A DNA stretch of 42,853 bases, taken from the NCBI GenBank assembly GCA_031555145.1, contig JAVBUR010000040.1, positions 1 through 42,853 on the forward strand, in the 5' to 3' direction. The translations under genes and the position numbers were made by a program. The stretch is from Tannerellaceae bacterium. GTDB taxonomy: Bacteria; Bacteroidota; Bacteroidia; Bacteroidales; Tannerellaceae. The notes beneath the pieces were generated by a model. That model made no database searches and was not told where the DNA came from. It worked only from the letters and a program-made list of their open reading frames with translations. This document shows positions 305-23,824 of this stretch, piece by piece (position 1 is the first letter of the stretch; the number at the start of each line of letters is the position of its first letter).

Positions 305-973
305 ATGGGAATCATAGAAATGGAGGGTATTAGCAAGAAATACCGTACGAAAGAAGTGGAAACACTTGCATTGGAGAATGTCAATCTGGAAGTAAAGGCT
401 GGCGAATTCCTGTCGGTTATGGGACCGTCGGGATGTGGAAAGAGTACGCTGCTCAACCTGATGGGGTTGCTCGATCTGCCGGATGAAGGAAACATACGGA
501 TCGCCGGTCAGGAGACTACCGGCATGAAAGACGGCGCCATGGCTGAGTTCCGTAATGAAACATTGGGATTTGTCTTCCAGAGTTTCCACCTGATCAACTC
601 GCTCAATGTGATTGAGAATGTGGAGATGCCCCTCCTCTATCGTTCATCGACAGAAAAAGAGCGGCGTGAAAAAGCGAAAGCCGTATTAGAAAAGGTCGGC
701 CTCTCCCACCGGATGAAACACTTCCCCAGCCAGCTCTCCGGCGGACAATGCCAACGTGTCGCCATCGCCCGTGCCCTGATCGGCAACCCGAAGATCATCC
801 TGGCCGACGAACCTACGGGTAACCTCGACAGCCGGATGGGTGCTGAGATCATGGACATACTGTTCGGCCTCAACCAGGAAGGCGCCACCATCGTCATGGT
901 TACCCACGACGAACGGATTGCCAAAGAGACCCAACGCATTGTTCGCTTCTTCGACGGAAGACGGATTGAATAG
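305..973 (+). CDS. ABC transporter ATP-binding protein (MacB/LolD-like ATPase subunit)
   Basis: Walker A GPSGCGKST, ABC signature LSGGQCQRVAIARAL and Walker B ILADEPT. Product is 222 aa. The N-terminus IEMEGISKKY is typical of LolD/MacB-type ATPases. It is followed directly by FtsX-type permease genes. Confidence 0.9.
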   Translation: MGIIEMEGISKKYRTKEVETLALENVNLEVKAGEFLSVMGPSGCGKSTLLNLMGLLDLPDEGNIRIAGQETTGMKDGAMAEFRNETLGFVFQSFHLINSLNVIENVEMPLLYRSSTEKERREKAKAVLEKVGLSHRMKHFPSQLSGGQCQRVAIARALIGNPKIILADEPTGNLDSRMGAEIMDILFGLNQEGATIVMVTHDERIAKETQRIVRFFDGRRIE

Positions 974-1025
974 AATGGGAGTAGTAAGTAGATCGTTGTT
1001 GGGAGTTAGTAGAATCACATTCATT

Positions 1026-2291
1026 ATGTATAAGATATATTTCAAACAGGCCCTTTATATACTGAAGAGCAATCCGTTGCTCAGTCTTATTTCCATTATA
1101 GGAACGGCATTGGCTATCTGCATGATCATGGTCATTATGATTCTGTATGAAGTCAATACGGCGGACATTACGCCGGAAGTAAACCGGAGCCGTTCGTATT
1201 ATGTGACGGTCATTGAATCGCTTAATAAGACGACAAAGCAACGATATTCCTATACATACCTCGGATACACATTCACCAAAGAGTGTCTGTATTCACTTAC
1301 ACAAGCGGAAACGGTTACCGCCACGATTCATGGCCATACCTCTTTTACTTCCACAATGGATCAGCAACAGGAGTATATGAGCAATGTGCTTTACACAGAT
1401 GTCACCTTTTGGAGTGCATACCAGTTTCATTTTGTGGATGGGCGCCCGTACAACGAAGCTGAATTCGCAAGCGGCCTCCGCAACATAGTGATCACAGAAA
1501 GCCTTGCCCGCAGGATGTTCGGTACGGAAAAAGCGGCCGGCAAACAACTGAAATTAAGTTATATCCCGTATACAATCAGCGGAGTAGTAAAGGATGTTTC
1601 AAAATTTGCAGATAAAGCGTATGCTGACATATGGCTTCCTTTTACCACCATGAAAAACATTCCGGATTGGAACGAAGGGGTCAATGGCGACATGCAATGT
1701 ACCATCATAGCAAAAGAAGGCGTAACCCGGAAAGGGTTGCAGGAAGAAATAGCCAACAAAATGGCGGTATTCAACTCCAAAACATCACAGGTTGAAGCCT
1801 TTATCAATGAGCAGCCGATGAGCCACGCTCAACTATGGCTAACAGGAGGAGGTACACACCAGGCTCCTAATATGCAAAACACCTTCTTCAGGTACGGATT
1901 CCTGATCCTTATGCTGCTACTGGTTCCCGCGCTCAATCTTTCCGGTATTATATTATCCCAAATGCAAAAACGGCTAGGAGAACTGGGCGTACGCAGGGCC
2001 TTTGGAGCCAAATCCAATCATCTGCTTTGGCAGGTTATAACCGAAAATGCCGTACAGACACTGATAGGCGGTTTTCTGGGATTAGTATTATCCTATTTGG
2101 GTTTGTATTTGCTTCGGAACTGGCTATTGACAACAACTATGGGAGTTGACAGCTTGACTGGCAGCATGTTCAGTATCACTGTATTCTTATACGCCTTTCT
2201 GTTCTGCATGGTGATGAACCTGCTGTCGGCCGGTATTCCGGCATGGAACGTCTCCCGTTCAAAAATTATAGATTCATTAAACACACTATAA
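1026..2291 (+). CDS. FtsX-family ABC transporter permease (MacB-like, A-type paralog 1)
   Basis: The long ORF 840-2291 overlaps the ATPase. The start was chosen at ATG 1026 (MYKIYFKQA...) because paralogs at 3576 and 6150 begin identically. One N-terminal TM, a large extracytoplasmic domain and a C-terminal 3-TM FtsX region ending ...LLSAGIPAWNVSRSKIIDSLN. Confidence 0.8.
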   Translation: MYKIYFKQALYILKSNPLLSLISIIGTALAICMIMVIMILYEVNTADITPEVNRSRSYYVTVIESLNKTTKQRYSYTYLGYTFTKECLYSLTQAETVTATIHGHTSFTSTMDQQQEYMSNVLYTDVTFWSAYQFHFVDGRPYNEAEFASGLRNIVITESLARRMFGTEKAAGKQLKLSYIPYTISGVVKDVSKFADKAYADIWLPFTTMKNIPDWNEGVNGDMQCTIIAKEGVTRKGLQEEIANKMAVFNSKTSQVEAFINEQPMSHAQLWLTGGGTHQAPNMQNTFFRYGFLILMLLLVPALNLSGIILSQMQKRLGELGVRRAFGAKSNHLLWQVITENAVQTLIGGFLGLVLSYLGLYLLRNWLLTTTMGVDSLTGSMFSITVFLYAFLFCMVMNLLSAGIPAWNVSRSKIIDSLNTL

Positions 2292-2296
2292 AAGTT

Positions 2297-3559
2297 ATGT
2301 GGACAACCGTAATCCGACAAATGTGGAACGAACGGAAAGGGAATAGCCTGATCTGGTTCGAATTAGTGATTGTGGCTGCTTTTATGTGGTACACTGTTGA
2401 TGCATTGTACATTGCGTATAAGAATTACACCCGACCGTTAGGCTTCGATATCAACCACACCTATCATATCTCACTCGCGGCAATAGATAAAGAGAGTGAA
2501 GCATACGATCAGGCGGCATCCGACGCTGAAACTCCCGGCGACTATTTCTTTACCATACTTGATCGTATCGGTCGGAATCCACAAGTGGAGGCCGTATGCT
2601 ATACCAGCAATAATCATTTTCATTATAAATGGAGTAACCAGTTCAGTACATTCAAAAATGATTCGCTGTCCCGGAATGGGTATGTACGGAATGTAAGTCC
2701 TTCCTATTTTCAGGTATTCAATGTACAATCTGCTAATGACAGGGATCGTGAGGAATTAGGAAAAGTATTGGAGAGAAACGAGATTGTGATTACCAACACT
2801 GTAGCCAATACTTTTTTTGGAAATACATCCAATGCTATGAGTAAGGAAATCCGATGCATTATCCAGAACGAAGACAGTGCCCTCTACAAGATCGGAGCCG
2901 TATGCGAAGCACAACGAACCAATGATTTCCGGGAATATGATTATGCATTTTACCGAAATATACCTGCCGACCAGTTAAGAAAGCATCTTGGAAGCCCGGC
3001 CTACATGAACATCTTCATCCGTATCAAGGCGAATAACGACAGTAAAGCCTTTCCGGAAAAATTCCGTAAAGAAATGCGCGAACAACTCCATGTGGGCAAT
3101 TGCTATCTGGCAAACATTACCCCCATGTCCGAATACAGGGAACAACAAATACGCGAGGGGCTGGATCAAATGCGTATGAACAGTTCTGTCATTGGCTTCT
3201 TTCTGCTAAATGTGCTATTAGGGGTAGTCGGCACCTTCTGGCTTCGCACCCAACGAAAACAAGGTGAAATCGGTCTCCGGTTGGCAGTCGGATCGTCGCA
3301 ATCAGGCATTGCCCGGTTACTTTTCCTGGAGGGAAACATCTTACTATTGGCCGCTTTTATTCCTGCCACCTTGATCTTCATCAACCTGCAATATGCCGGC
3401 GTCATAGAGAGTGTATACGGATTACCGTTTATCCCTCGTTTTCTGACAGGTATGATCATTACTTATTTGTTATTGGCCGGTATGATGGGGGTTGGCATAT
3501 CCTTCCCGGCATGGCGGGCGGTAAAAATTAGTCCGGTAAAGGCATTACATTACGAATAA
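2297..3559 (+). CDS. FtsX-family ABC transporter permease (B-type paralog 1)
   Basis: Start chosen at ATG 2297 (MWTTVIRQMWNERKGNS...) by analogy with the MIRHILTIIWNERK N-termini of paralogs at 4844 and 7421. C-terminal FtsX-like TM bundle ...PAWRAVKISPVKALHYE. Confidence 0.75.
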   Translation: MWTTVIRQMWNERKGNSLIWFELVIVAAFMWYTVDALYIAYKNYTRPLGFDINHTYHISLAAIDKESEAYDQAASDAETPGDYFFTILDRIGRNPQVEAVCYTSNNHFHYKWSNQFSTFKNDSLSRNGYVRNVSPSYFQVFNVQSANDRDREELGKVLERNEIVITNTVANTFFGNTSNAMSKEIRCIIQNEDSALYKIGAVCEAQRTNDFREYDYAFYRNIPADQLRKHLGSPAYMNIFIRIKANNDSKAFPEKFRKEMREQLHVGNCYLANITPMSEYREQQIREGLDQMRMNSSVIGFFLLNVLLGVVGTFWLRTQRKQGEIGLRLAVGSSQSGIARLLFLEGNILLLAAFIPATLIFINLQYAGVIESVYGLPFIPRFLTGMIITYLLLAGMMGVGISFPAWRAVKISPVKALHYE

Positions 3560-3575
3560 GAATAAACAAACAGGT

Positions 3576-4847
3576 ATGTACAAAATATATTTCAAACAAG
3601 CCATCCAGATGCTGAAACAAAACAAGTTTATCAGCATCGTAGCTATCATCGGTACGGCGTTAGCCATTATGATGATCATGGCTATCCTGGTATCCGAAGA
3701 AGTGAAAACGATCAGTGTAGCGCCGGAGGTGAACCGCGACCGGACGTATTACGTCAGTTATCAGGCCGTAAGGGATACCACCAGTGGCATGATGGTGAGT
3801 GGATTCGTCGATTATGATATCATACGCAAATACCTGGCGGAACTGAAAACACCCGAATGTGTATCGGCTGTTAATATGTATGATACACGAACCACCAAAC
3901 TAATCAACACGGAAGGTTCGAATACCTATGTCAATGCCATTGTGCGGATCACTGACGCGAATTACTGGAAGATAATGGCGTTCAATTTTATCGAAGGGAA
4001 ACCATTCGTTCAGGAAGAATTTGACTCCGGCATTCCGGTAGCTGTTATCAGCCAAAACATGGAACGAACGCTATTCAAAGGAGAGAAAGCGCTTGGACAA
4101 ATCATCTTGGTGGAGTTCAAGCCCTACCGGGTCATTGGTATCGTAAAGGATGTCTCACCGGTTTTCAGAATGGCATACGGCCAGGTATGGATCACATATA
4201 CCTCACAGAAAAAGTTTGAACATTCGGGATACCATGTCATGTTGCTAGCACGCAGCAACAATGACTACCCGGCCATGTATGAAGAGGTTCGGAATGTAGA
4301 GAAGAGGTATCATGCCGACAAGAATCCCTGGACCATGTATCTGCGCGGGCCTGAAAATCATCGCATCTACCAGATGGATGTTCGGGCGGGCAATGCCAAT
4401 TCCGTAGCCAAAGGAATCAAGACACAGAACAGGAAGATGGTGTTCATCCTGCTGATACTGCTGCTGATACCGGCCATCAACCTGTCGGGATTCAGTCTTT
4501 CACGTATCAAACGGCGTACCGCTGAAATCGGAGTCCGGAAAGCGTTCGGAGCCAAGCGGTACATCATCCTGATACAGGTGCTTTGTGAAAACCTGATCAC
4601 TTCGCTGATCGGGGGTATGATCGGGCTACTTTTCTCTTATTTGGTGATCTTCCAGATGCGGAGATGGTTGCTCGGAGTCCCGACTGGTAGTGATATTCCT
4701 GGCAGCACGCTTATTTCCCTGCCCGTTTTTATTGCCGTATTCGTCGTATGCCTGCTAATCAACCTGCTCTCTGCCGGTATACCGGCCTACCGGGCTTCCC
4801 AGATGAAAATAATCGATTCACTCAATCAAAACGATAAACAATCATGA
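3576..4847 (+). CDS. FtsX-family ABC transporter permease (A-type paralog 2)
   Basis: 423 aa. N-terminus MYKIYFKQAIQMLKQNKF. C-terminal conserved block RIKRRTAEIGVRKAFGAK...LLSAGIPAYRASQMKIIDSLN. 4-bp overlap with the next gene. Confidence 0.85.
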   Translation: MYKIYFKQAIQMLKQNKFISIVAIIGTALAIMMIMAILVSEEVKTISVAPEVNRDRTYYVSYQAVRDTTSGMMVSGFVDYDIIRKYLAELKTPECVSAVNMYDTRTTKLINTEGSNTYVNAIVRITDANYWKIMAFNFIEGKPFVQEEFDSGIPVAVISQNMERTLFKGEKALGQIILVEFKPYRVIGIVKDVSPVFRMAYGQVWITYTSQKKFEHSGYHVMLLARSNNDYPAMYEEVRNVEKRYHADKNPWTMYLRGPENHRIYQMDVRAGNANSVAKGIKTQNRKMVFILLILLLIPAINLSGFSLSRIKRRTAEIGVRKAFGAKRYIILIQVLCENLITSLIGGMIGLLFSYLVIFQMRRWLLGVPTGSDIPGSTLISLPVFIAVFVVCLLINLLSAGIPAYRASQMKIIDSLNQNDKQS

Positions 4848-6106
4848 TACGCCATATCCTCACCATTATCTGGAACGAACGGAAAACGAATGCCTGGATC
4901 GTTGTCGAATACACCCTTGTCTTCTGTATCCTATGGTTTTGTTGCGACTATCTGTACTTTATAGGGAAATCCTATATCGAGCCGTTGGGGTTTGATATCG
5001 AACATACCTATGCCATTGAGATGGGTGAGAAGGATCAGGAAGGAGATCCCAGTACGAAAGAAGACATATATGCAGATGCTATCACGTTAATGGAACGTGT
5101 CAAACGTTATCCGGGTGTCGAAAGTGTCAGTTTCAGTTCTTCTTCCGTACCCTATTTCCTGAGCTGGAGCGGTAACGGGTATATCGTCAATTCGGATTCC
5201 ACCTGGCAAACCATACAGCTACGAAGAGTAACACCGGGTTACTTTGACGTATTCAGGATAAAGATGGTATCAGGACGTGCCTTCACACCCGAAAACAGCA
5301 ATGATAATACGATACTGATCAGTCCGGACAGAAATAACATGTTTGGTAAAGACAAAAACACCATCCATGCCATATCAGATGTACGTACGCTCCGTACAGC
5401 AGAAGAAGGTGATGATACATATACGGTTACCGGTATCACTGATAAAATGAAAAGGGCATTTTACGAACCATACGAAATCAGTATATTTCAGCCACTAAGC
5501 AGAGATATGTACAACCCGTCATGGAATGAAATCACCATCCGGGTACGTCCGGAAGCCGACAAGAACTTCGCCGAACAATTTACACGCGACATGCGCGAAC
5601 AATTGATGATCGGGTCTTATTTCCTCACCTCCATAACATCCTTGGAGGAGATACGGGATTCCGCCGCCGAATGGAGTGGCATCTGGGCGAACCTGAACAG
5701 CATCTATTCTATCACCGCATTCCTGATCATCAATATCTTCCTCGGTATTATCGGCACCTTCTGGTATCGGACACAGGCACGGCGCAGTGAGATCGGGTTA
5801 CGTATTGCACTGGGGGCCACCAAACGGCAAATCAAGACAATACTCTGTACAGAAACACTGCTATTGTTACTCCTATCCAGCATTATCGGTATCAACATCT
5901 GTCTGAACATCAACCAGACCGACCTGCTGAAAACACTGGGGATCCCGGCAGCCGACAGCGTAGCGGCAGGCAGCGGCATCGAACAATACTTCATCAACTT
6001 TGCCCTCACCTTCGGTTTCCTTGCCCTGGTTTCCCTGGCTGCCGTATGGTACCCGGCACGACAGGCGGCAAATATTCCGCCGGTAGAGGCATTACGAGAA
6101 GAATAA
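4844..6106 (+). CDS. FtsX-family ABC transporter permease (B-type paralog 2)
   Basis: 420 aa. N-terminus MIRHILTIIWNERKTNAW. C-terminal FtsX TM region ...AVWYPARQAANIPPVEALREE. Confidence 0.85.
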   Translation: MIRHILTIIWNERKTNAWIVVEYTLVFCILWFCCDYLYFIGKSYIEPLGFDIEHTYAIEMGEKDQEGDPSTKEDIYADAITLMERVKRYPGVESVSFSSSSVPYFLSWSGNGYIVNSDSTWQTIQLRRVTPGYFDVFRIKMVSGRAFTPENSNDNTILISPDRNNMFGKDKNTIHAISDVRTLRTAEEGDDTYTVTGITDKMKRAFYEPYEISIFQPLSRDMYNPSWNEITIRVRPEADKNFAEQFTRDMREQLMIGSYFLTSITSLEEIRDSAAEWSGIWANLNSIYSITAFLIINIFLGIIGTFWYRTQARRSEIGLRIALGATKRQIKTILCTETLLLLLLSSIIGINICLNINQTDLLKTLGIPAADSVAAGSGIEQYFINFALTFGFLALVSLAAVWYPARQAANIPPVEALREE

Positions 6107-6149
6107 GGAGAGTATGCATTAGTACAGGTAAGAGACACTATTGTTAGCT

Positions 6150-7424
6150 ATGTATAAGATCTATTTCAAACAAGCTATCCAGATGCTGAAGCAGAACAAG
6201 TTCATCAGCATCGTAGCGATCATCGGCACGGCATTGGCCATTATGATGATCATGGCGATACTGGTATCCGAAGAAGTGAAGACGATCAGTGTGGCACCGG
6301 AAATCAACCGTGACCGGACGTTTTATATCCATTATCAGACAGAGCGGGATACGAGCGGCCTCAATCATACTTCAAATTCCGGTTACCTCACTTACAATGT
6401 AGTACGACACTATCTGTCAAACCTGAAAACACCCGAACAGGTATCTGCCATAAGCTCCGAAATATGCCTCACAAACCGAGAAGGGATGAGCGAATATGTC
6501 AATACAGTGGTACGCCAGATCGATGCCTCTTATTGGAAGATACTCGCCTTTACATTTATTGAAGGAAGACCTTTCAGTCAGGAAGAGTTCGAATCAGGCC
6601 TACAGGTTGCCGTGATCAATCAAAGTACCGCCCAACAGTTATTCAAAGGCGAGCAGGCAATCGGACAAACCATCCTGATCGAATTCAAGCCCTATCGGGT
6701 AGTCGGCATTGTTAGAGATGTATCGTCTGTCTTTACAATGGCTCACGGAGATATATGGATCGCCTATACCTCACAACAAAACAATGAATCCAGGAATGCG
6801 TCTATATTCAACCTGATGTTGCTGGCACGAAACACGGATGATTACCCGGCCATCAGTGAAGAAATACGCAAAATGGAAAAGAAATACCAGACAGACAACA
6901 CGGCTAAAACCCTCGAACTGATGGGACCGATAAGCCATCGTACCTATCGGATGAATATTCGAGGGGGCACGGCTGAGAGCATCGCCAAAGAGGTTCAAAT
7001 ACAAAACCGCAAACTGTTATTTATATTGTTGGTCCTGTTGTTGATCCCTGCCATCAACCTGTCAGGCTTCAGCCTGTCGCGCATCAAACGGCGCACGGCG
7101 GAGATTGGTGTCCGGAAAGCGTTCGGTGCCAAACAGTATGTCATCCTGTTCCAGGTACTTTGCGAGAATCTGGTAACCTCTCTAATCGGCGGTGTGATCG
7201 GGCTTCCGCTCTCGTATGTAGTGGTATTCATGATGCGTGACTGGTTACTGAATCTACCCGACGATAGTGTGATCCCAGTCAGCACACTGGTTTCGCTACC
7301 GGTATTACTGGCTGTATTCACCATATGCCTGCTGATTAATCTGTTGTCTGCCGGCATCCCGGCCTACCGGGCTTCATGCATGAAAATAGTCGACTCCATC
7401 AATCAAAACGATAAGCAAGCATGA
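6150..7424 (+). CDS. FtsX-family ABC transporter permease (A-type paralog 3)
   Basis: The ORF track begins at TTG 6141. ATG 6150 gives MYKIYFKQAIQMLKQNKF, identical to the 3576 paralog over about 50 aa. Middle domain diverged, C-terminus conserved. Confidence 0.85.
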   Translation: MYKIYFKQAIQMLKQNKFISIVAIIGTALAIMMIMAILVSEEVKTISVAPEINRDRTFYIHYQTERDTSGLNHTSNSGYLTYNVVRHYLSNLKTPEQVSAISSEICLTNREGMSEYVNTVVRQIDASYWKILAFTFIEGRPFSQEEFESGLQVAVINQSTAQQLFKGEQAIGQTILIEFKPYRVVGIVRDVSSVFTMAHGDIWIAYTSQQNNESRNASIFNLMLLARNTDDYPAISEEIRKMEKKYQTDNTAKTLELMGPISHRTYRMNIRGGTAESIAKEVQIQNRKLLFILLVLLLIPAINLSGFSLSRIKRRTAEIGVRKAFGAKQYVILFQVLCENLVTSLIGGVIGLPLSYVVVFMMRDWLLNLPDDSVIPVSTLVSLPVLLAVFTICLLINLLSAGIPAYRASCMKIVDSINQNDKQA

Positions 7425-8689
7425 TACGACATATCCTTACCATTATCTGGAACGAACGAAAAGCCAATAGCTGGATCGTGATAGAGTACACCTTTGTCTT
7501 TTGCATCCTGTGGTTCTGCTGCGACTACTTGTACTTCATCGGCAAATCATACATGGAGCCACTGGGTTTCAACATTGAACATACTTATCGCATCCAAATG
7601 AAAGAAAGAGACGGCGACAGGGATGCCCGAAAGCAAGAAGACACGTATGCCCATATCCGGCTCTTTCTGGAACGGGTCAAACGCCACCCGGCCATTGAAG
7701 GTGTCAGTATAAGCCAATCGGCGGCACCCTATCTCGGCAGTTTCTCCAGTACCGGTTTTAAAATCAATACGGACTCTGTCTGGCCAACCATACAACAACG
7801 AATGGTTACACCGGATTTTTTCGATGTATTTAAGATCAAGCTACAATCCGGACGCGCCTTTAACGAACAAGAAGACTGGAATAGTATTGTCGCCCTGATA
7901 GCCCCGAACAGGCATCAACGATTTGGAGCAAGAGGAGAACCCGGAATACCGGTTACGGAAGTACGCACAGTCTCCAAAGATTATGAAGAAGGTAAGCAGT
8001 TCCATTCGGTGATTGGTATCACTGCCCCTATAAAAACGACGTTCTATGACCCGTATCGTTGTTGTGTATTTCTACCGATGAACCTGACATATTCCGACCT
8101 GCGCTGGGCGGAAATCATTGTCCGTGTACGACCGAAAGCTGATCGGAACTTTGTCGAACAGTTCACCCGCGACATGCGTGAACAATTGATGATCGGCCCG
8201 TATTTCCTGACAACTGTTACCCCATTAACCAAATTGCGTGATAGCTTCATGAAAGGGCAAGGTATAACATCCAGCCTGAACAGCATCTACTCCATCACCG
8301 CCTTCCTGATCATCAATATCTTCCTCGGCATTATCGGTACCTTTTGGTATCGGACACAGGCACGACGGAGTGAAATCGGACTTCGCATCGCCATGGGTGC
8401 CAGCCGGCGACAGATCGAAACAATGCTATTCGCCGAGACACTACTGCTATTATTCATCGCCAGTGTGATAGGTCTCAACATCTGCCTCAATATCAATCAG
8501 ACTGACTTGTTGCAGGCACTCGGCATCCCTCAATCCGACCATGCACAGGCCGGTATTGGTATCGAACATTACTTTATCAACTACACACTGACCTTCGGTT
8601 TCCTGGCCATCATTTCCCTGGCAGCCGTATGGTATCCGGCACGGCAGGCGGCAAGTATACCACCGGTAGAAGCATTGCAGGAAGAATAA
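7421..8689 (+). CDS. FtsX-family ABC transporter permease (B-type paralog 3)
   Basis: 422 aa. MIRHILTIIWNERKANSW N-terminus. High similarity to the 4844 gene at both termini. Confidence 0.85.
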   Translation: MIRHILTIIWNERKANSWIVIEYTFVFCILWFCCDYLYFIGKSYMEPLGFNIEHTYRIQMKERDGDRDARKQEDTYAHIRLFLERVKRHPAIEGVSISQSAAPYLGSFSSTGFKINTDSVWPTIQQRMVTPDFFDVFKIKLQSGRAFNEQEDWNSIVALIAPNRHQRFGARGEPGIPVTEVRTVSKDYEEGKQFHSVIGITAPIKTTFYDPYRCCVFLPMNLTYSDLRWAEIIVRVRPKADRNFVEQFTRDMREQLMIGPYFLTTVTPLTKLRDSFMKGQGITSSLNSIYSITAFLIINIFLGIIGTFWYRTQARRSEIGLRIAMGASRRQIETMLFAETLLLLFIASVIGLNICLNINQTDLLQALGIPQSDHAQAGIGIEHYFINYTLTFGFLAIISLAAVWYPARQAASIPPVEALQEE

Positions 8690-8755
8690 ATACCAAATAA
8701 CACAACCCTATTCAATAAAATCTTTATTTTTACATGTTCAAGAAGTGAATGCCCC

Positions 8756-10117
8756 ATGATATTGATTTGTGACGACGATGTAACCGTTCGTACCACCCTC
8801 ACACTGGTACTCAAACGGGCAGGATATGAAGTAGCAACGGCTGCCACGCGGCAGGAGGCAATCGACTTTGTACGCCATACCGAGCCGCAACTCATCCTGA
8901 TGGATATGAACTACAGCCAGACGACCACGGGTGAAGAAGGATTGGAACTACTGGCGCAGGCCAAGGTGTTCCGTCCCGATGTGCCGGTGATCCTGATCAC
9001 GGCCTGGGGGTCGATCGGGTTGGCAGTACAGGGCATACGCGCCGGGGCATTCGACTTCGTCACCAAGCCCTGGAACAACGTGGCGCTACTGAACAGTATC
9101 CAGACGGCTATCCAATTGAACGAAGAAAGCCGGAAAGAGATTCCGGACAGCCTTACCTCCCCGGGTAAATCGTTGCGTAACGATAAGATCATCGGTCGTT
9201 CCCCACTCCTACAACAGGTAATGAACACAGTTGCCCGTATTGCCCATACCAGCGCACCTGTTCTGATCACCGGCGAAAGCGGTACAGGTAAAGAACTCAT
9301 CGCTGAAGCCATCCATGAAGGCAGCAACCGTAACAAAGGAACTTTTGTTAAAGTTAACCTGGGAGGTATCTCCCAGTCGTTATTCGAAAGCGAGATGTTC
9401 GGACACAAACAGGGAGCCTTCACCGATGCCCGGCACGACCGGGTGGGACGGTTTGAACTGGCGAACAAGGGTAGCATCTTCCTCGACGAGATCGGCGAAC
9501 TCGACCTCGTATGCCAGGTTAAGCTGTTGCGTGTATTACAGGATCAGACCTTCGAACCGCTTGGCGACAGTAAACCCCGGCAAGTGGATACCCGCATCAT
9601 CAGCGCCACCAATCGTAACCTGACCGAGATGGTCGCACAGGGATCATTCCGCGAAGACCTGTTCTACCGCATCAACCTGATTACCATCCGGATGCCTTCG
9701 CTGCGTGAACGGTTGGAAGATATTCCACTGCTGGCAGATCATTTTGCCCGGAAACAGACCAAACTGAATGGATTACCGCCTGTCGAAATAGCGCCGGACG
9801 CTATTCGATACCTGCAACAACTGCCTTTCCCGGGTAATATCCGCGAACTGAAGAACCTGGTAGACCGCACTCTACTGGTATCCGGCCACCAACGGATCAC
9901 AGAGGCCGACTTTCGCGAACAATACGTAGAGATACCCTCCGGGCACGAACCGGAAGCCAGTTCCGTGCAGTCGCTCGAACGAATTGAGAAGAACATGATC
10001 CTCCGGGCAATCAAACTCTATGGATCGAACCACTCTAAGATCGCTACCGCCCTGGGTGTGAGCAGGCAAACGCTCTACCGGCGCCTCGAGAAATACGATA
10101 TCAAACTCCCTGAATAA
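8756..10117 (+). CDS. sigma-54-dependent Fis-family response regulator (NtrC-like)
   Basis: N-terminal receiver domain (ICDDD...LILMDMNY...KP), AAA+ sigma54-interaction domain (GESGTGKE, GAFTDA, ESELFGH-like), C-terminal Fis HTH (KIATALGVSRQTLYRRLEKYDI). Confidence 0.9.
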   Translation: MILICDDDVTVRTTLTLVLKRAGYEVATAATRQEAIDFVRHTEPQLILMDMNYSQTTTGEEGLELLAQAKVFRPDVPVILITAWGSIGLAVQGIRAGAFDFVTKPWNNVALLNSIQTAIQLNEESRKEIPDSLTSPGKSLRNDKIIGRSPLLQQVMNTVARIAHTSAPVLITGESGTGKELIAEAIHEGSNRNKGTFVKVNLGGISQSLFESEMFGHKQGAFTDARHDRVGRFELANKGSIFLDEIGELDLVCQVKLLRVLQDQTFEPLGDSKPRQVDTRIISATNRNLTEMVAQGSFREDLFYRINLITIRMPSLRERLEDIPLLADHFARKQTKLNGLPPVEIAPDAIRYLQQLPFPGNIRELKNLVDRTLLVSGHQRITEADFREQYVEIPSGHEPEASSVQSLERIEKNMILRAIKLYGSNHSKIATALGVSRQTLYRRLEKYDIKLPE

Positions 10118-10118
10118 G

Positions 10119-11420
10119 ATGCGACGGAAGTGGTTATTCTGGATCATCGCCTGTATCCTGTCGGGATCACTGATCGGTATCGGTTGGGTATTTTTCCGCG
10201 AAGACATCACATCGTTATGGGTAATCGAAGGGATTGCGATGATCGCGATCCTGTTGGCAGTCCTGCTCTACCAGAAGTTGATCAAACCCTACAACCTGAT
10301 ACTAAGCGGTATGCAACTGCTGAATGAACAGGACTTCTCCACCAGCCTTCGTCCTGTTAAAAACAAGGATGCCGACCAGTTGATCAGTGTATTCAACCGG
10401 ATGATCACCCACCTCAGGCACGAACGGCTATTGGTTCGCGAGAAGAACCAGTTTCTCGACCTGCTGATCAATGCTTCGCCACAAGGTATCATCATTCTCA
10501 ATTTCGACCGCCGCATCACCGAAGCGAATGCTTCCGGACTCAAATTGCTGGGAGTTGACAGCCTGACCGATATACAAGGACTGCGCTTCGACGAACTGAC
10601 CTTCGAACTGGCACCTTCCCTCGCCGCACTGAAACCAGGCGAAGACGTCATCATCCGCGGTGCAGGAGGCTATGCCTACCGCTGTGTCTATTCGTCGTTT
10701 GTGGATAACGGTTTCGACCATCCCTTTATCCTGATTGAGGAACTCAGTCATGAGTTGATTAAGATCGAAAAGGCGTCCTACGACCGGATTATCCGCATGA
10801 TGTCGCACGAAGTGAATAATTCCGTCGGGGCTATCGGAGCTACATTGAATGTCGTTTCCGATATCTTCCGGCATGATGAGGCACAACGCTGGGATGACGT
10901 CCTGCCGGCCGTCGAAGCCTCTTATGAACGTTGTGGCCGGTTGGCACACTTTATCGGCAATCTGGCCGAAGTTGTCAAGATACCCGAACCGTCCCTGTCG
11001 GATATTTCCCTCAACGAGCAGGTTCGGTCGGTATACGCCCTCACCAGCAGCGAATGCCGACAACGCGACATCACACTAACACTATCACTGGCCGAGCCCG
11101 ACACCCTGATCCGGGTAGACGGTATTCAGTTCGAACAGGTGCTGGTAAATATTATCAAGAATGCCTATGAAGCCATCGGCACCCACGGTGAGATACGGAT
11201 TGCCACCACAGCCTCTCCCCTCTCCATCCGGATAGAGAACAACGGCCCTGCTATCGACGAGGCTGTCCGCCAGAAACTCTTCACCCCCTTCTTCACGACA
11301 AAGACTACCGGACACGGTATCGGACTGATGTTTGTTCGCGACGTCCTCATCAACCACCACTGCAAATTCAATCTCAGCAGTCAGGACGGATGGACACGGT
11401 TTGAAATCCTTTTTACCTGA
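10119..11420 (+). CDS. sensor histidine kinase (two TM helices with a minimal extracytoplasmic loop, PAS-like, HisKA, HATPase_c)
   Basis: TM1 LFWIIACILSGSLIGIGWVFF and TM2 WVIEGIAMIAILLAVLLY are separated by about 7 residues. H-box MSHEVNNSVGAI. G-boxes ...NNGPAIDE... and GHGIGL. The start is adjacent to the response-regulator stop. Confidence 0.85.
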   Translation: MRRKWLFWIIACILSGSLIGIGWVFFREDITSLWVIEGIAMIAILLAVLLYQKLIKPYNLILSGMQLLNEQDFSTSLRPVKNKDADQLISVFNRMITHLRHERLLVREKNQFLDLLINASPQGIIILNFDRRITEANASGLKLLGVDSLTDIQGLRFDELTFELAPSLAALKPGEDVIIRGAGGYAYRCVYSSFVDNGFDHPFILIEELSHELIKIEKASYDRIIRMMSHEVNNSVGAIGATLNVVSDIFRHDEAQRWDDVLPAVEASYERCGRLAHFIGNLAEVVKIPEPSLSDISLNEQVRSVYALTSSECRQRDITLTLSLAEPDTLIRVDGIQFEQVLVNIIKNAYEAIGTHGEIRIATTASPLSIRIENNGPAIDEAVRQKLFTPFFTTKTTGHGIGLMFVRDVLINHHCKFNLSSQDGWTRFEILFT

Positions 11421-20259: not shown

Positions 20260-20267
20260 TATCTTTG
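20260..20267 (+). promoter_or_regulatory. candidate -7 box TATCTTTG upstream of the 20296 gene cluster
   Basis: Matches TAnnTTTG, 29 nt upstream of ATG 20296. Confidence 0.3.
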
Positions 20268-20295: not shown

Positions 20296-20928
20296 ATGAG
20301 TATATTTTCCAAACTATTCGGTAAAAAACAAAGCGAAGAAGGAACAGGCGAACGCTCGGTAGAAGAGTTCATCATGCTAGTCCGTGTATATTATCAGGGC
20401 GTAATGGCCAGTAACCTGGGTATTACCAACCTCCAGATGTTGCCTGACCTGGCCTTGTTCAAACGCATGCTGAAGGTCCCAACACAGAACAACAAACTGG
20501 GCGTAGCTGAAAAATCGCGCGTACGTAAAATATTAATACAGGACTACGGCTTGACCGAAGACTTCTTCAAAGAGATCGACGCCTCCGTCAAAAAGAACTG
20601 TAAGACCCAACAGCATGTCCAGACCTATTTCTTCCAGTTCCAGGGCTTCTGCAACGACCTGTTCACCCAACTGGAAAGCCTGATGGGATTGAAGTTCCGC
20701 TTCTCCATCCTGGTTAAGAAACTGCTGCACGCCCAAACGGAGAAGACTGTCCACGAGATCATGACCAAACAGGAATGGAAAGAGGTCAAAGACCAGAAAG
20801 CCGCCTGGGCCATCCGCAAATACGCTGAAAACCTCGGCTTCTCCGAACAATGGATCGTCGCCCTCATCTACAACGTCGTCGTCCTCGCCCGCAAACAGGG
20901 CAAGCAAGACAAGAAGCAGGCGGATTAG
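20296..20928 (+). CDS. hypothetical cytoplasmic protein (Lys-rich, N-terminus MSIFSKLFGKK)
   Basis: 210-aa ORF with no TM segments and no recognisable catalytic motifs. First gene of the SPFH/zinc-ribbon cluster. Confidence 0.5.
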   Translation: MSIFSKLFGKKQSEEGTGERSVEEFIMLVRVYYQGVMASNLGITNLQMLPDLALFKRMLKVPTQNNKLGVAEKSRVRKILIQDYGLTEDFFKEIDASVKKNCKTQQHVQTYFFQFQGFCNDLFTQLESLMGLKFRFSILVKKLLHAQTEKTVHEIMTKQEWKEVKDQKAAWAIRKYAENLGFSEQWIVALIYNVVVLARKQGKQDKKQAD

Positions 20929-20969
20929 TATTCGTTACCACAATAAGTTAACCCTCTAAAACGGTAGTT

Positions 20970-22256
20970 ATGGCAATTATTGATGTTGTAAAATGGGATG
21001 GCAGTCCCGATATTTTCGCATGGAAATTCCCTGAAGAAAATCTGACAACATTCACACAGTTAATCGTGAATGAATCACAGGAAGCTGTATTCTTCCACAA
21101 AGGAGCGATTATAGCTGTATTCGGTCCGGGGAAACACGTACTCTCGACAGAGAATATACCTATTCTTGAAAAGCTGTATGGAATACCGTTTGGTGGTAAA
21201 AATCCTTTTACGGCGGAAGTATGGTTTGTCAACAAGGTAAAAGTACTGGATATCAAATGGGGGACCAACCCACCCTTCCAGATACGGGATCCGCAGTATC
21301 GTGTATTTGTCCCGGTCCGTGCATTCGGTCAATTCGGGATACAAATTACGGATGCCAAATCTTTTCTTGTTAAGTTAGTGGGTACAGTACCTGCATTCCG
21401 GCAGGAAGATATTTCCTCTTACTTCAAAGGATTACTGATGGCAGAATCGACTTCAATCATTGCGAAGAAAATAACCGAAGATAAAGTCTGCGTTCTTGAT
21501 ATTGCCACACAGATACTTCCTCTTTCGAAAGCATTAAAAGAGAATATACAGCAGGAATTTGCGGAATACGGAATCACCCTTGTCAACTTTTACATCAATT
21601 CCATTTCCATTCCGGAAGGAGACCCTGCAGTTTCACAATTAAAGACTCTCCTTTCCAGAAAGGCAGAAATGGAAGTATTAGGCTTTACCTATCAACAGGA
21701 AAGAGCTTACAACGTATTGGAAAATGCAGCCGGCAACCAAGGGACTGTCGGCAACACCATGGGAGCCGGTATCGGCATGGGAATGGGATTAGGAGTTGGT
21801 GGTATTATGGGAGGCATGATGCAGGAAGTAGGTCATCAGGTACGTGGAGAATCGGCCGTTTGCCCTCATTGCAAAAAGACCATTCCGGCAGGAGTCAATT
21901 TCTGTCCCGTATGTGGGAAGAAGATTACTTCCAGTGGCGCCACTGTTTCCACAGTAATTTGTAATAACTGCCAAAAGGAAATGCCGGCTACATCAAAATA
22001 CTGTCCTCATTGCGGCGACATCTACAATGCCTGCCCGGAATGCAAAACCGACAATCCAACAAATGCCACCCAATGCGTCAACTGCGGCTGTTTAATGCCT
22101 ATTCATTGCCCTAAGTGTAATGCAAAAGTAAACAGAGATGCCAGATTTTGTCCCGAATGTGGAGAACGGATTGCCCAAATATGTCCTAAATGCAATCAGG
22201 CAGTTAACCCTGGAAGCAAATTTTGTCCCTCTTGCGGGGAGAACCTGAGTAGATAG
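20970..22256 (+). CDS. SPFH/Band-7 family protein (YdjI-like, Band_7_1 type) fused to five C-terminal zinc ribbons
   Basis: N-terminus IIDVVKWDGSPDIFAWKFP...ESQEAVFFHKGAIIAVFGPGKHVLSTENIPIL...TAEVWFVNK follows the pattern of B. subtilis YdjI-type SPFH proteins. Gly/Met-rich linker (GAGIGMGMGLGVGGIMGG). Then 5 x CxxC-x(10-17)-CxxC. Confidence 0.7.
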   Translation: MAIIDVVKWDGSPDIFAWKFPEENLTTFTQLIVNESQEAVFFHKGAIIAVFGPGKHVLSTENIPILEKLYGIPFGGKNPFTAEVWFVNKVKVLDIKWGTNPPFQIRDPQYRVFVPVRAFGQFGIQITDAKSFLVKLVGTVPAFRQEDISSYFKGLLMAESTSIIAKKITEDKVCVLDIATQILPLSKALKENIQQEFAEYGITLVNFYINSISIPEGDPAVSQLKTLLSRKAEMEVLGFTYQQERAYNVLENAAGNQGTVGNTMGAGIGMGMGLGVGGIMGGMMQEVGHQVRGESAVCPHCKKTIPAGVNFCPVCGKKITSSGATVSTVICNNCQKEMPATSKYCPHCGDIYNACPECKTDNPTNATQCVNCGCLMPIHCPKCNAKVNRDARFCPECGERIAQICPKCNQAVNPGSKFCPSCGENLSR

Positions 22257-22266
22257 AGGTCTTTTT

Positions 22267-22995
22267 ATGGAGAAGAATATTGACTTCGTTAAAATATTAT
22301 GCTTAGGGAGAAAAGGACTTGGACCAATTATCGCACCTTGCTTAACGATAATTCTTGCTCCGCTCGGTTTTCTCTACAGCCTCTTTTATTGTACCAAAGT
22401 AAAGATACATAAGACACCTACCTGGTATATCGGAGATAATTTACATTTGGGTTATGCTCTCTTCTGGGGTTCCATTATTTTGTCATTAGGCTTTCTCTTT
22501 ATAATGGGATATTTTATTGATGACACCCCTGATGATCTTGAGGTCTTTTTTTATTCTATCGGATTGCCATTTACTTTAAGTGGCTTTTCTATCATACTCT
22601 ATCAATTCAGATACAAAGAGTATAAAGGAATCATGAATGCGCTTCTTGGTGAAATTGCATTCTCTCAGACTCAAGAGAAGAGAACTTTGGAGGAGAATAT
22701 CCGCATCAATATTATACGTCCATCCGCTTCTTTTAATCTTACAGAGATGCTGGATGATCTCAAAAAGAATGCCGTCATTAACTACAACATTTATGGCGAT
22801 TCTATTCACATTGAGGTTTTAAGTCCTACATTAAAAGAATATTGTTTTGACGAAAACGATCCTTCCCTTTACGAAGAATGGGAATGCAGATCATGCGGAG
22901 CAAACAACAGAGTAAGGAAAGTCCATGCTGAAAATATCCAATGCGTATATTGTGGTACAGAGAAACTCTCCAGTGCGGAGAGCCCAAGTAAATAA
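22267..22995 (+). CDS. membrane protein with C-terminal zinc ribbon (paralog 1)
   Basis: 242 aa. Two or three predicted TM helices after a short cytoplasmic N-terminus. C-terminal EEWECRSCGANNRVRKVHAENIQCVYCGTEK. Confidence 0.6.
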   Translation: MEKNIDFVKILCLGRKGLGPIIAPCLTIILAPLGFLYSLFYCTKVKIHKTPTWYIGDNLHLGYALFWGSIILSLGFLFIMGYFIDDTPDDLEVFFYSIGLPFTLSGFSIILYQFRYKEYKGIMNALLGEIAFSQTQEKRTLEENIRINIIRPSASFNLTEMLDDLKKNAVINYNIYGDSIHIEVLSPTLKEYCFDENDPSLYEEWECRSCGANNRVRKVHAENIQCVYCGTEKLSSAESPSK

Positions 22996-23006
22996 AACCC
23001 AGCCAT

Positions 23007-23699
23007 ATGGAGGAGAAAATTGATTTAGTAAAAAAACTGCATTTAAAGAAAGAAGGGATCGGACCGTATGTTCTACTCTGCTTTACAATAGTCCTTTCTC
23101 CTATTGCTTGTATCCACAGTTTTTATTACATGTCCAAAACGAGAATAAACAGGGTTCCAGCTTTGTATATTACAGATAATTTCCACTTGGGTTATTACTG
23201 GAGCCTTTTCATATTTTTAGCAGGTATCTACTTTTTTATATCCTACTCTAACAATCCGGCACCTGATGTTGCCGATCAACTCTTTTTCTATGCTGCAGTA
23301 TTACCTTGGCTATTAAGCAGTTTTCCTCTCATGATGTATCAAATTGCAAGTATACTTGATAGAGAGGCAAGGAATATACTCCTTAAGGATATCACAATAT
23401 CTCGTGTTCAGAAGAAAACTTCTTTGGAGAAAAACATACACAAGACGGGGTTTAAATACAATATCACAGACATGCTGAAGGATCTCAAAGAGAATGCAGT
23501 TATTGACTATAGAAACGATGATGAAACCATCTATATAGAAGTACTGAATCCCTATTTAAAAGGGTATTGTCTTGACGAAAACGATTCATCCTTATATGAA
23601 GAATGGGAATGTAAGTCATGCGGAGCAAATTACAGAACAAGTAAATTCTATACCGAAAACTTCCAATGCGAATATTGCGGGACAGAGAAACCCGCATAA
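23007..23699 (+). CDS. membrane protein with C-terminal zinc ribbon (paralog 2)
   Basis: 230 aa. Same architecture and conserved blocks as the preceding gene (DLKENAVIDY, EEWECKSCGANYRTSKFYTENFQCEYCGTEK). Confidence 0.6.
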   Translation: MEEKIDLVKKLHLKKEGIGPYVLLCFTIVLSPIACIHSFYYMSKTRINRVPALYITDNFHLGYYWSLFIFLAGIYFFISYSNNPAPDVADQLFFYAAVLPWLLSSFPLMMYQIASILDREARNILLKDITISRVQKKTSLEKNIHKTGFKYNITDMLKDLKENAVIDYRNDDETIYIEVLNPYLKGYCLDENDSSLYEEWECKSCGANYRTSKFYTENFQCEYCGTEKPA

Positions 23700-23816
23700 A
23701 GCATTCAAACGCGACCAAACGCAAAGTCTTCCAACATAGTTACATTTGTCAATACACATCCATCTATTCGAGTTCGTATATTGTGAAAAAATGCAATAAC
23801 GTAGCCCTTTATTCGT

Positions 23817-23824
23817 TATATTTG
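23817..23824 (+). promoter_or_regulatory. candidate -7 box TATATTTG upstream of OmpA-family gene
   Basis: Matches TAnnTTTG, 23 nt upstream of ATG 23847. Confidence 0.3.

Follow-up and report, generated by a model that had tools for sequence, protein, structure and literature searches.

A five-ribbon SPFH gene and its membrane zinc-ribbon partners in a Tannerellaceae contig: a candidate PspA-independent analogue of the SamGHI system

The locus described here raises the question of which of four adjacent genes belong to one working unit, and of what kind that unit may be. The genes, designated A to D, are same-strand open reading frames (ORFs) at positions 20296-23699 of contig JAVBUR010000040.1 from a Tannerellaceae bacterium, the analysed stretch of which (positions 1 to 42,853) is referred to below as the 42.8-kb window. 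An earlier note, made from the sequence alone, had presented them as a four-gene, Psp-like module lacking PspA, and its gene coordinates agree with the ORF calls. The partition suggested by the present analysis is a different one: the functional unit is, with somewhat better than even odds, B-C-D (20970-23699), a Bacteroidota-type reduced form of a widespread uncharacterised module, whereas gene A appears to be a vertically inherited Tannerellaceae gene and an unrelated neighbour of the other three. The trio B-C-D is read as a PspA-independent analogue of the SamGHI system of Bacillus subtilis, in which C and D would dock the soluble protein B, and the probability of this reading is put at roughly 0.55.

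The core of the unit is gene B (20970..22256, + strand; 428 aa), encoding a soluble protein with three recognizable parts. The N-terminal one, an SPFH domain (aa 18-216; 21021..21617, + strand), matches the Pfam family Band_7_1 (PF13421) with an E-value of 2.4e-51 and a score of 174.8 bits against a cut-off of 24, and the Pfam family Band_7 more weakly (E 3.9e-06); it holds many invariant columns in a cross-phylum alignment of 22 B homologs. The second is a Gly/Met-rich low-complexity linker (aa 264-284; 21759..21821, + strand), read from the sequence as MGAGIGMGMGLGVGGIMGGMM, the pattern GxGxGMGxG of which is conserved in the same alignment. The third is a C-terminal array, aa 298-425 (21861..22244, + strand), of five CxxC...CxxC zinc ribbons with a net charge of +7, in which ten CxxC pairs lie at aa 298-422 and which is matched by several zinc-ribbon models, among them DZR and, in five separate stretches, Zn_Ribbon_1; in the 22 homologs, drawn from several phyla, 18 of the 20 ribbon cysteines are invariant and the other two at least 90% conserved. 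A crude hydropathy scan found no hydrophobic 19-mer above threshold, hence no transmembrane (TM) segment. The PDB sequence search with B returned no match, and among the PHROGs B gave zinc-ribbon matches only. The view of B as an SPFH/Band-7 protein with five zinc ribbons, put forward in the earlier note, is thus borne out by the profile matches.

Concerning its relatives, the B protein has at least 5179 full-length homologs; in a set of 5.8 billion proteins, its best full-length match other than itself is 58-60% identical. These homologs carry public labels such as "SPFH domain-containing protein" or "membrane protease subunit (stomatin/prohibitin family)"; the corresponding orthologous group, COG4260, is described with a C-terminal Zn-ribbon domain. 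The five-ribbon architecture of ~430 aa is found in at least 591 species genomes, among them those of Paenibacillus, many Clostridia, Deltaproteobacteria, Spirochaetia, Synergistaceae, Alistipes, Parabacteroides sp. PM6-13 and the archaeon Methanimicrococcus stummii, so the fusion of ribbons to the SPFH protein is not special to this locus. Within this family of Bacillota, Deltaproteobacteria, Spirochaetia, Synergistota and one methanogen, B shares 44-60% identity with the other members and the 20 cysteines are invariant or nearly so. A studied protein of comparable build is SamI (YdjI) of B. subtilis, which is likewise anchorless and consists of an SPFH domain, a stretch of low complexity and, at the C-terminal end, a zinc finger (PMC8581546; 10.64898/2026.02.06.704340). 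The likeness of B to this protein, compared by Pfam family and architecture only, extends to the Band_7_1 domain, the missing TM segment, the Gly/Met-rich linker and the C-terminal ribbons, five in B and one in SamI, and the YdjI-type assignment therefore stands. The idea that the ribbon function had here moved from YdjG onto the SPFH protein does not, because YdjI itself already possesses a C-terminal zinc finger and the five-ribbon form is widespread.

Whether B belongs with its neighbours was addressed in the 80 loci that scored best among at least 591 hits from a scan with the B alignment (79 of them non-redundant and about 40% from Paenibacillaceae), with ORFs called mechanically, TM segments taken from simple hydropathy and neighbours clustered by BLAST with single linkage. 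Three clusters are widely shared by the 79 loci: B itself (79 loci), a protein of ~243 aa that combines four TM helices with a coiled coil of ~100 aa (69 loci), and the family to which C and D belong (61 loci, 96 proteins), present in one copy in 36 loci, two in 17, three in six and four in two. Every other neighbour cluster occurs in at most 17 of the 79 loci and reflects lineage-specific synteny, e.g. with genes for an ABC transporter, a beta-lactamase, a cupin or an ankyrin protein. No Pfam model was found for either of the two partner families. A profile of C and D, run on the ORFs of the 80 B-centred loci, gave in most of these loci matches on the same strand, immediately downstream of B, in which the aligned stretch usually begins with the second TM helix and reaches the zinc ribbon; the genetic coupling of B to membrane-anchored zinc-ribbon proteins, as proposed before, is therefore a recurrent one. 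The genes of the window fall in the same clusters (cluster 0 for B, cluster 2 for C and D) as a five-ribbon SPFH gene followed by same-strand genes of the C/D family, and they resemble the widespread arrangement in whole-length hidden Markov model (HMM) matches of C and D as well as in strand, order and tight spacing. The module of the earlier note is in this respect upheld for B-C-D as a conserved unit, but not for A as its fourth member. No publication describing the five-ribbon module or its partner families was found in the literature searched (SPFH with zinc ribbon, COG4260/PF13421, SPFH with anti-phage), in line with the description of the system as uncharacterised.

The Bacteroidota form seems to be a reduced one. 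The protein with four TM helices and the coiled coil, encoded in 69 of the 79 loci, has no counterpart here: its HMM matched nothing in the window, nor in L004, L009 and L010, the other three Bacteroidota loci scanned. The possibility that its function had been fused into C and D was considered and rejected, the comparison of both families by hhalign giving a probability of only 27%. The closest relative of B among those with an examined contig, the protein P0126 (58% identity), comes from another Bacteroidota contig in a PorV/SusCD context, and it too is directly followed by two proteins (213 and 223 aa) with TM segments and a C-terminal ribbon; in Parabacteroides sp. PM6-13 and Alistipes a single protein of this type follows the B homolog. 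With regard to the two subtypes of the C/D family, both window proteins are of the 'long' one, while L004 has one short and one long.

Two further variants were seen outside the Bacteroidota. On the chromosome of Methanimicrococcus stummii (locus L065, 7001-9900) a five-ribbon SPFH gene, the product of which is 46% identical to B, occurs with a gene of the four-TM coiled-coil family and with one for a 248-aa protein that has six hydrophobic segments along with two CxxC pairs, a finding that suggests transfer between domains of life. In four metagenome-assembled genomes of Deltaproteobacteria (L079, L080, L087 and L059), B is followed by much longer proteins of 415-752 aa in place of the zinc-ribbon partner; those checked have about three TM segments and two CxxC pairs, and two match the C/D profile weakly, the one checked doing so at the ribbon only. 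They may represent a fused or expanded partner variant.

The partners themselves are tightly packed behind B: gene C (22267..22995, + strand; 242 aa) follows after a gap of 10 nt and gene D (23007..23699, + strand; 230 aa) after another of 11 nt. Their products are integral membrane proteins of the same architecture and paralogs of each other (46% identity, E 2e-74), each with three hydrophobic segments and a single C-terminal CxxC...CxxC motif. In C, the layout comprises three TM helices (aa ~19-113), a winged-helix-like cytoplasmic domain (aa ~135-184) and the zinc ribbon (aa 205-232); members of the family have 2-3 TM helices, and in comparison with the others the Bacteroidota proteins carry an extra one at the N-terminus. 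Neither C nor D matches any family of Pfam, NCBIfam or PHROG at a meaningful score, and no match to TF_Zn_Ribbon was found in them. The paralogy, the TM segments and the C-terminal ribbons ascribed to C and D by the earlier note were all recovered; their likeness to YdjH was not, the TPM domain being absent from both at E-values up to 1 and from all 60 family members scanned. A word-indexed protein search with C yielded three matches only, and C was taken for a possible orphan; this was rejected once the profile search (34 clusters at library-wide significance among 1.84 billion representatives) and the HMM scan of B neighbourhoods had revealed a large, diverged family. Ahead of each of the two metagenomic C homologs (67% and 63% identity) lies a B-like protein, represented by its C-terminal end. 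In one such pair of loci—L001 (1-1110) against 20970-22995 of the window—identity amounts to 89% in the C-terminal part of B and to 67% in C, and, as far as these sequences go, the membrane partner appears to evolve much faster than the SPFH protein.

The middle domain of C and D bears on a second reading of the module, namely membrane-tethered signalling, in which the winged-helix-like domain and ribbon would bind DNA or a regulator, B would restrain or release the partners, and the output would be transcriptional. The AlphaFold2 model of C shows the three TM helices, a beta-alpha-alpha-beta-beta unit and the ribbon, and the top PDB matches found for it by Foldseek are all winged-helix DNA-binding domains (ArsR/SmtB, the C-terminal domain of CodY, STIV F93; probability 0.85-0.99). 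The consensus of the wider family, 'SIDKLAEALGTSEEKVKKDLEKMIKKGY', is helix-turn-helix-like, and a few members give weak matches to TrmB or PCI. Moreover, the loss of SamI in B. subtilis unbalances SamG and SamH and changes transcription globally (10.64898/2026.02.06.704340), and a regulatory role has been proposed for the zinc ribbon of YdjG (PMC9239133). Set against these points are the insignificant Foldseek E-values and the low confidence of the model, a middle-domain charge that is not consistently basic (net -7 in C and -5 in D; across the family between -9 and +11, with a median of +2), and the finding that in the 79 loci neither a conserved DNA target nor a regulator gene goes with the module. 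Signalling of this kind is held to be quite unlikely, and the assignment of C and D as proteins of TM helices, a winged-helix-like domain and a zinc ribbon is provisional as regards the middle domain, where it follows the predicted model.

Gene A (20296..20928, + strand; 210 aa) had been regarded as the opening member of the module, with an N-terminus echoing PspA/Vipp1, and the corresponding reading—a four-gene Psp-like operon in which A replaces PspA by means of an N-terminal amphipathic peptide—has a few features in its favour. The first residues of A, MSIFSKLF, resemble MGIFSRFA of E. coli PspA, and the peptide MSIxSKLFxKK is conserved among A orthologs. The gap between A and B measures only 41 nt and contains no terminator; the clear hairpin found 3' of A in its two closest relatives is missing here. 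A box of the type TAnnTTTG, the -7 promoter element of Bacteroidetes, lies at 20260-20267, 29 nt upstream of A, and there is none upstream of B, whereas a scan for sigma-70 promoters and terminators, a model not suited to Bacteroidota, remained at background level. Since the only -7 box precedes A and no terminator follows it, B-C-D is probably transcribed by read-through from the predicted promoter of A, which would make the four genes, possibly co-transcribed in this genome, look like one operon.

Even if co-transcribed here, the four genes do not share a history. The orthologs of A in six other Tannerellaceae genomes (68-90% identity) do not adjoin B, C or D in any of them; in five of the six the ortholog lies 3' of a MurQ(SIS) gene and a preceding kinase-like gene, directly or with an MgtC gene in between, and in four of these five a CitMHS gene stands ahead of the block, whereas in the sixth genome the ortholog is preceded by a thioredoxin gene instead. 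What follows 3' of A differs: a beta-lactamase or a TonB-dependent receptor, or, in the four genomes that remain when the two closest relatives are set aside, a GNAT acetyltransferase, a 193-aa protein or both. Conversely, a homolog of A adjoins B in none of the 79 B loci. The homologs of A exceed 5,000, with the best non-self match 89-90% identical; among the 120 best matches every source-named one comes from Parabacteroides, Tannerellaceae or another bin of Bacteroidales or Porphyromonadaceae, and these are all annotated as hypothetical. The GC content at third codon positions (GC3) is 0.682 in A, 0.417 in B, 0.366 in C and 0.372 in D, the other 30 genes of the window having 0.567 ± 0.054. 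As for PspA, the resemblance of A ends after the first ~8 residues; phmmer with E. coli PspA does not match A, and searches of Pfam, NCBIfam, PADLOC and PHROG gave no family match at a meaningful score. The AlphaFold2 model of A (pLDDT, a per-residue confidence score, 83) is all-alpha and matches no solved fold, including ESCRT-III, although the PDB contains structures of PspA and Vipp1. The four-gene reading, with A as member or PspA surrogate, is accordingly considered highly improbable: A is placed outside the unit because both synteny in the six genomes and composition, host-like in A and foreign in B-C-D, separate it from the other three genes. It should be added that in L089, L108, L109 and L110 A is followed by the GNAT acetyltransferase and/or 193-aa gene with stop and start often overlapping, and that A may possibly form part of a different small operon with these genes.

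The composition of B, C and D, 2.8-3.7 standard deviations below the other 30 window genes in GC3, marks the trio, on sequence grounds, as a horizontally acquired cassette apparently inserted after an unrelated core gene. Its candidate edges are two copies of a 9-nt direct repeat, TATTCGTTA, one directly after the stop codon of A (20929..20937, + strand) and the other 37 nt before the next gene (23810..23818, + strand), which are the only two in the 42.8-kb window and bracket exactly B-C-D. The chance of a shared 9-mer, roughly estimated from how long the two intergenic stretches are, is about 0.02, and the repeat may be a target-site duplication or a recombination scar of the inserted cassette; an empty site, with A followed directly by the OmpA-like gene, was sought in six relatives and not found, and the repeat thus stays suggestive. 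The Bacteroidota copies of the module lie in unrelated genomic contexts: in Parabacteroides sp. PM6-13 the pair is located between a DDE transposase on one side and a tyrosine integrase and a primase on the other, and in L001 it is 1.4 kb from phage structural genes.

Such mobility invites the reading of B-C-D as a mobile conflict or anti-phage cassette, e.g. of the abortive-infection type, in which the membrane-bound paralogs with winged-helix-like domain and ribbon would sense infection and the SPFH protein would serve as scaffold or effector. Besides the foreign composition and the two mobile contexts just mentioned, it could draw on the sporadic occurrence of the module among Bacteroidales (best match of B 58-60%, against 89-90% for A), on 14 IMG/VR contigs with B relatives, on the faster divergence of the partner at one and the same locus pair and on its tandem expansion to between one and four copies. 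Nevertheless, PADLOC-DB 2.0.0 gave no matches for A and B and only chance-level zinc-ribbon ones for C and D (E at least 0.035); the 136 directly flanking genes of 78 loci rarely match defence models (at most six per model, suspected to be lineage-linked), and in terms of Pfam families they are unremarkable (glucoamylase, ankyrin, beta-lactamase, AraC, MCP). Distant SPFH relatives were found in only 2 of 50,697 phage genomes, no close copy of B in the plasmid collection searched, and B relatives are rare in IMG/VR with their 14 loci; in Paenibacillus the flanks of the module are constant across many species, as would fit a stably inherited chromosomal set. The phage-defence scaffold suggested in the earlier note is for these reasons seen as improbable. 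A related reading regards the five-ribbon SPFH protein and the two Pfam-less families as a distinct mobile, PspA-free membrane system found in several bacterial phyla and one archaeon, in which the fast-evolving, tandemly duplicated TM proteins with winged-helix-like domain and ribbon would be sensors or signal transducers for envelope damage or phage attack, and an SPFH ring would gate them and not just be a passive scaffold; we consider it rather unlikely. As a separate observation, L001 (2010-2370, - strand) and L002 (2535-2903, - strand) contain paralogous genes for ~60-aa proteins, which share AIEEE..KGW.VKQI, one of them with a longer N-terminal extension, and which have the B-C pair on one side and phage-like structural genes on the other (PHROG 30639, E 1.8e-160).

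The module is independent of PspA in its gene context. With an E. coli PspA query validated against PDB 4WHE, phmmer finds no PspA in the whole window, as had been noted, and phmmer and jackhmmer searches within ±7 kb of B in each locus found a PspA-like ORF in only one, L069, ~5.6 kb upstream of B (E 7.5e-4). In B. subtilis, pspA is part of the pspA-ydjGHI operon, where SamG and SamH, two integral membrane proteins, bring SamI to the membrane (PMC8581546; 10.64898/2026.02.06.704340); a samI mutant, however, has a developmental phenotype that does not require PspA (10.64898/2026.02.06.704340). The B locus resembles SamGHI in having an SPFH gene beside genes of integral membrane proteins, at least one of them with zinc ribbons. 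It differs in the lack of pspA in the operon or nearby and in the gene order, the SPFH gene being first in B-C-D and last in B. subtilis. The membrane partners differ as well: YdjG consists of two zinc ribbons, an NTF2-like domain and a C-terminal TM segment, and YdjH of a TM segment and the TPM domain (PMC11237479), whereas C and D have three N-terminal TM helices, a winged-helix-like domain (the low-confidence model matching winged helices and no NTF2 folds) and one C-terminal ribbon.

A related cluster, likewise uncharacterised, is found in Bacteroides finegoldii. Its SPFH protein (WP_007757965) resembles B in the Band_7_1 domain and Gly/Met linker, with 39% identity over aa 2-257, but its C-terminal end is GYF-like, as judged by eye, where B has zinc ribbons. 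It is followed by WP_007757963, a hypothetical membrane protein that belongs to the four-TM coiled-coil family (E 1.3e-14), and by the zinc ribbon protein WP_022275465, which is soluble with an N-terminal ribbon, in contrast to the membrane-anchored C and D. The cluster is located at 3935-6546 of a record named 'plasmid 5' (NZ_OY725907.1, L106); this record carries obgE, adenylate kinase and dinB, and may be a chromosomal fragment. The classical SPFH operons (stomatin/flotillin-NfeD of the YqiJ/YuaF type and HflK/C-FtsH) share with B-C-D the principle of an SPFH scaffold encoded beside a dedicated small membrane partner; their SPFH proteins, however, have a TM anchor of their own and match Band_7 far better than B, and the partner is NfeD or a protease, neither of which was found among the shared neighbour clusters of the B loci.

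By analogy with SamG, SamH and SamI, C and D would act as a receptor in the inner membrane, since B shares the build of SamI and is encoded with small membrane proteins. SPFH proteins are known to oligomerise on membranes into rings or cages, and the cytoplasmic domains of C and D would dock oligomers of the anchorless B at the cytoplasmic face of the membrane, where their acidic charge (-7 and -5) may complement the basic ribbon array of B (+7). The outcome would be an SPFH assembly beneath the membrane that organizes it or reports its state with no linked PspA. Several points weigh against this reading. Between C and D on one side and SamG and SamH on the other there is no homology, the analogy being one of architecture only; the component usual elsewhere, the four-TM coiled-coil protein, is missing, so that the Bacteroidota form may work differently. 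Furthermore, the AlphaFold2 model of C is weak (pLDDT 64.6, from an alignment of four sequences) and its winged-helix matches lie below significance (Foldseek E 0.02-0.2), the neighbourhoods come from the 80 best of at least 591 hits with their Paenibacillaceae share of about 40%, and the calling of ORFs, the counting of TM segments and the BLAST clustering were all rough.

The surroundings of the locus in the window were described correctly in the earlier note, with CitMHS, a kinase-like gene and MurQ(SIS) upstream of A and TPR-PD40-OmpA and PagL-like genes downstream of D. The meaning attached to this neighbourhood of envelope functions was not sustained, the cassette being an apparent insertion with unrelated contexts elsewhere. 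Tandem repeats were looked for in the region and none was found. Farther upstream, at 305-11420 of the window, an ABC ATPase heads a series of six tandem paralogous permease genes of the MacB_PCD/FtsX type (~420-480 aa each), behind which come genes for a sigma-54-dependent response regulator and for a histidine kinase.

SPFH proteins are present in every domain of life, but how they work is still poorly understood; to our knowledge, SamI/YdjI is the only member of the Band_7_1 family that has been studied, and it has been interpreted mainly through PspA. The locus described here points to a much larger, PspA-free relative of SamI, present in at least 591 species genomes and accompanied by membrane partners of its own that lack Pfam models. 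In kind—an SPFH scaffold with membrane partners—the system is a known one; what is new is the five-ribbon module with its dedicated partners. For the Tannerellaceae genome itself, the annotation is corrected from a four-gene module to what appears to be a three-gene foreign cassette behind an unrelated core gene. For the family, the module offers a system of two or three components, available in culturable species of Paenibacillus, Clostridium and Parabacteroides, for asking how an SPFH protein without an anchor reaches the membrane and what its zinc ribbons do there.

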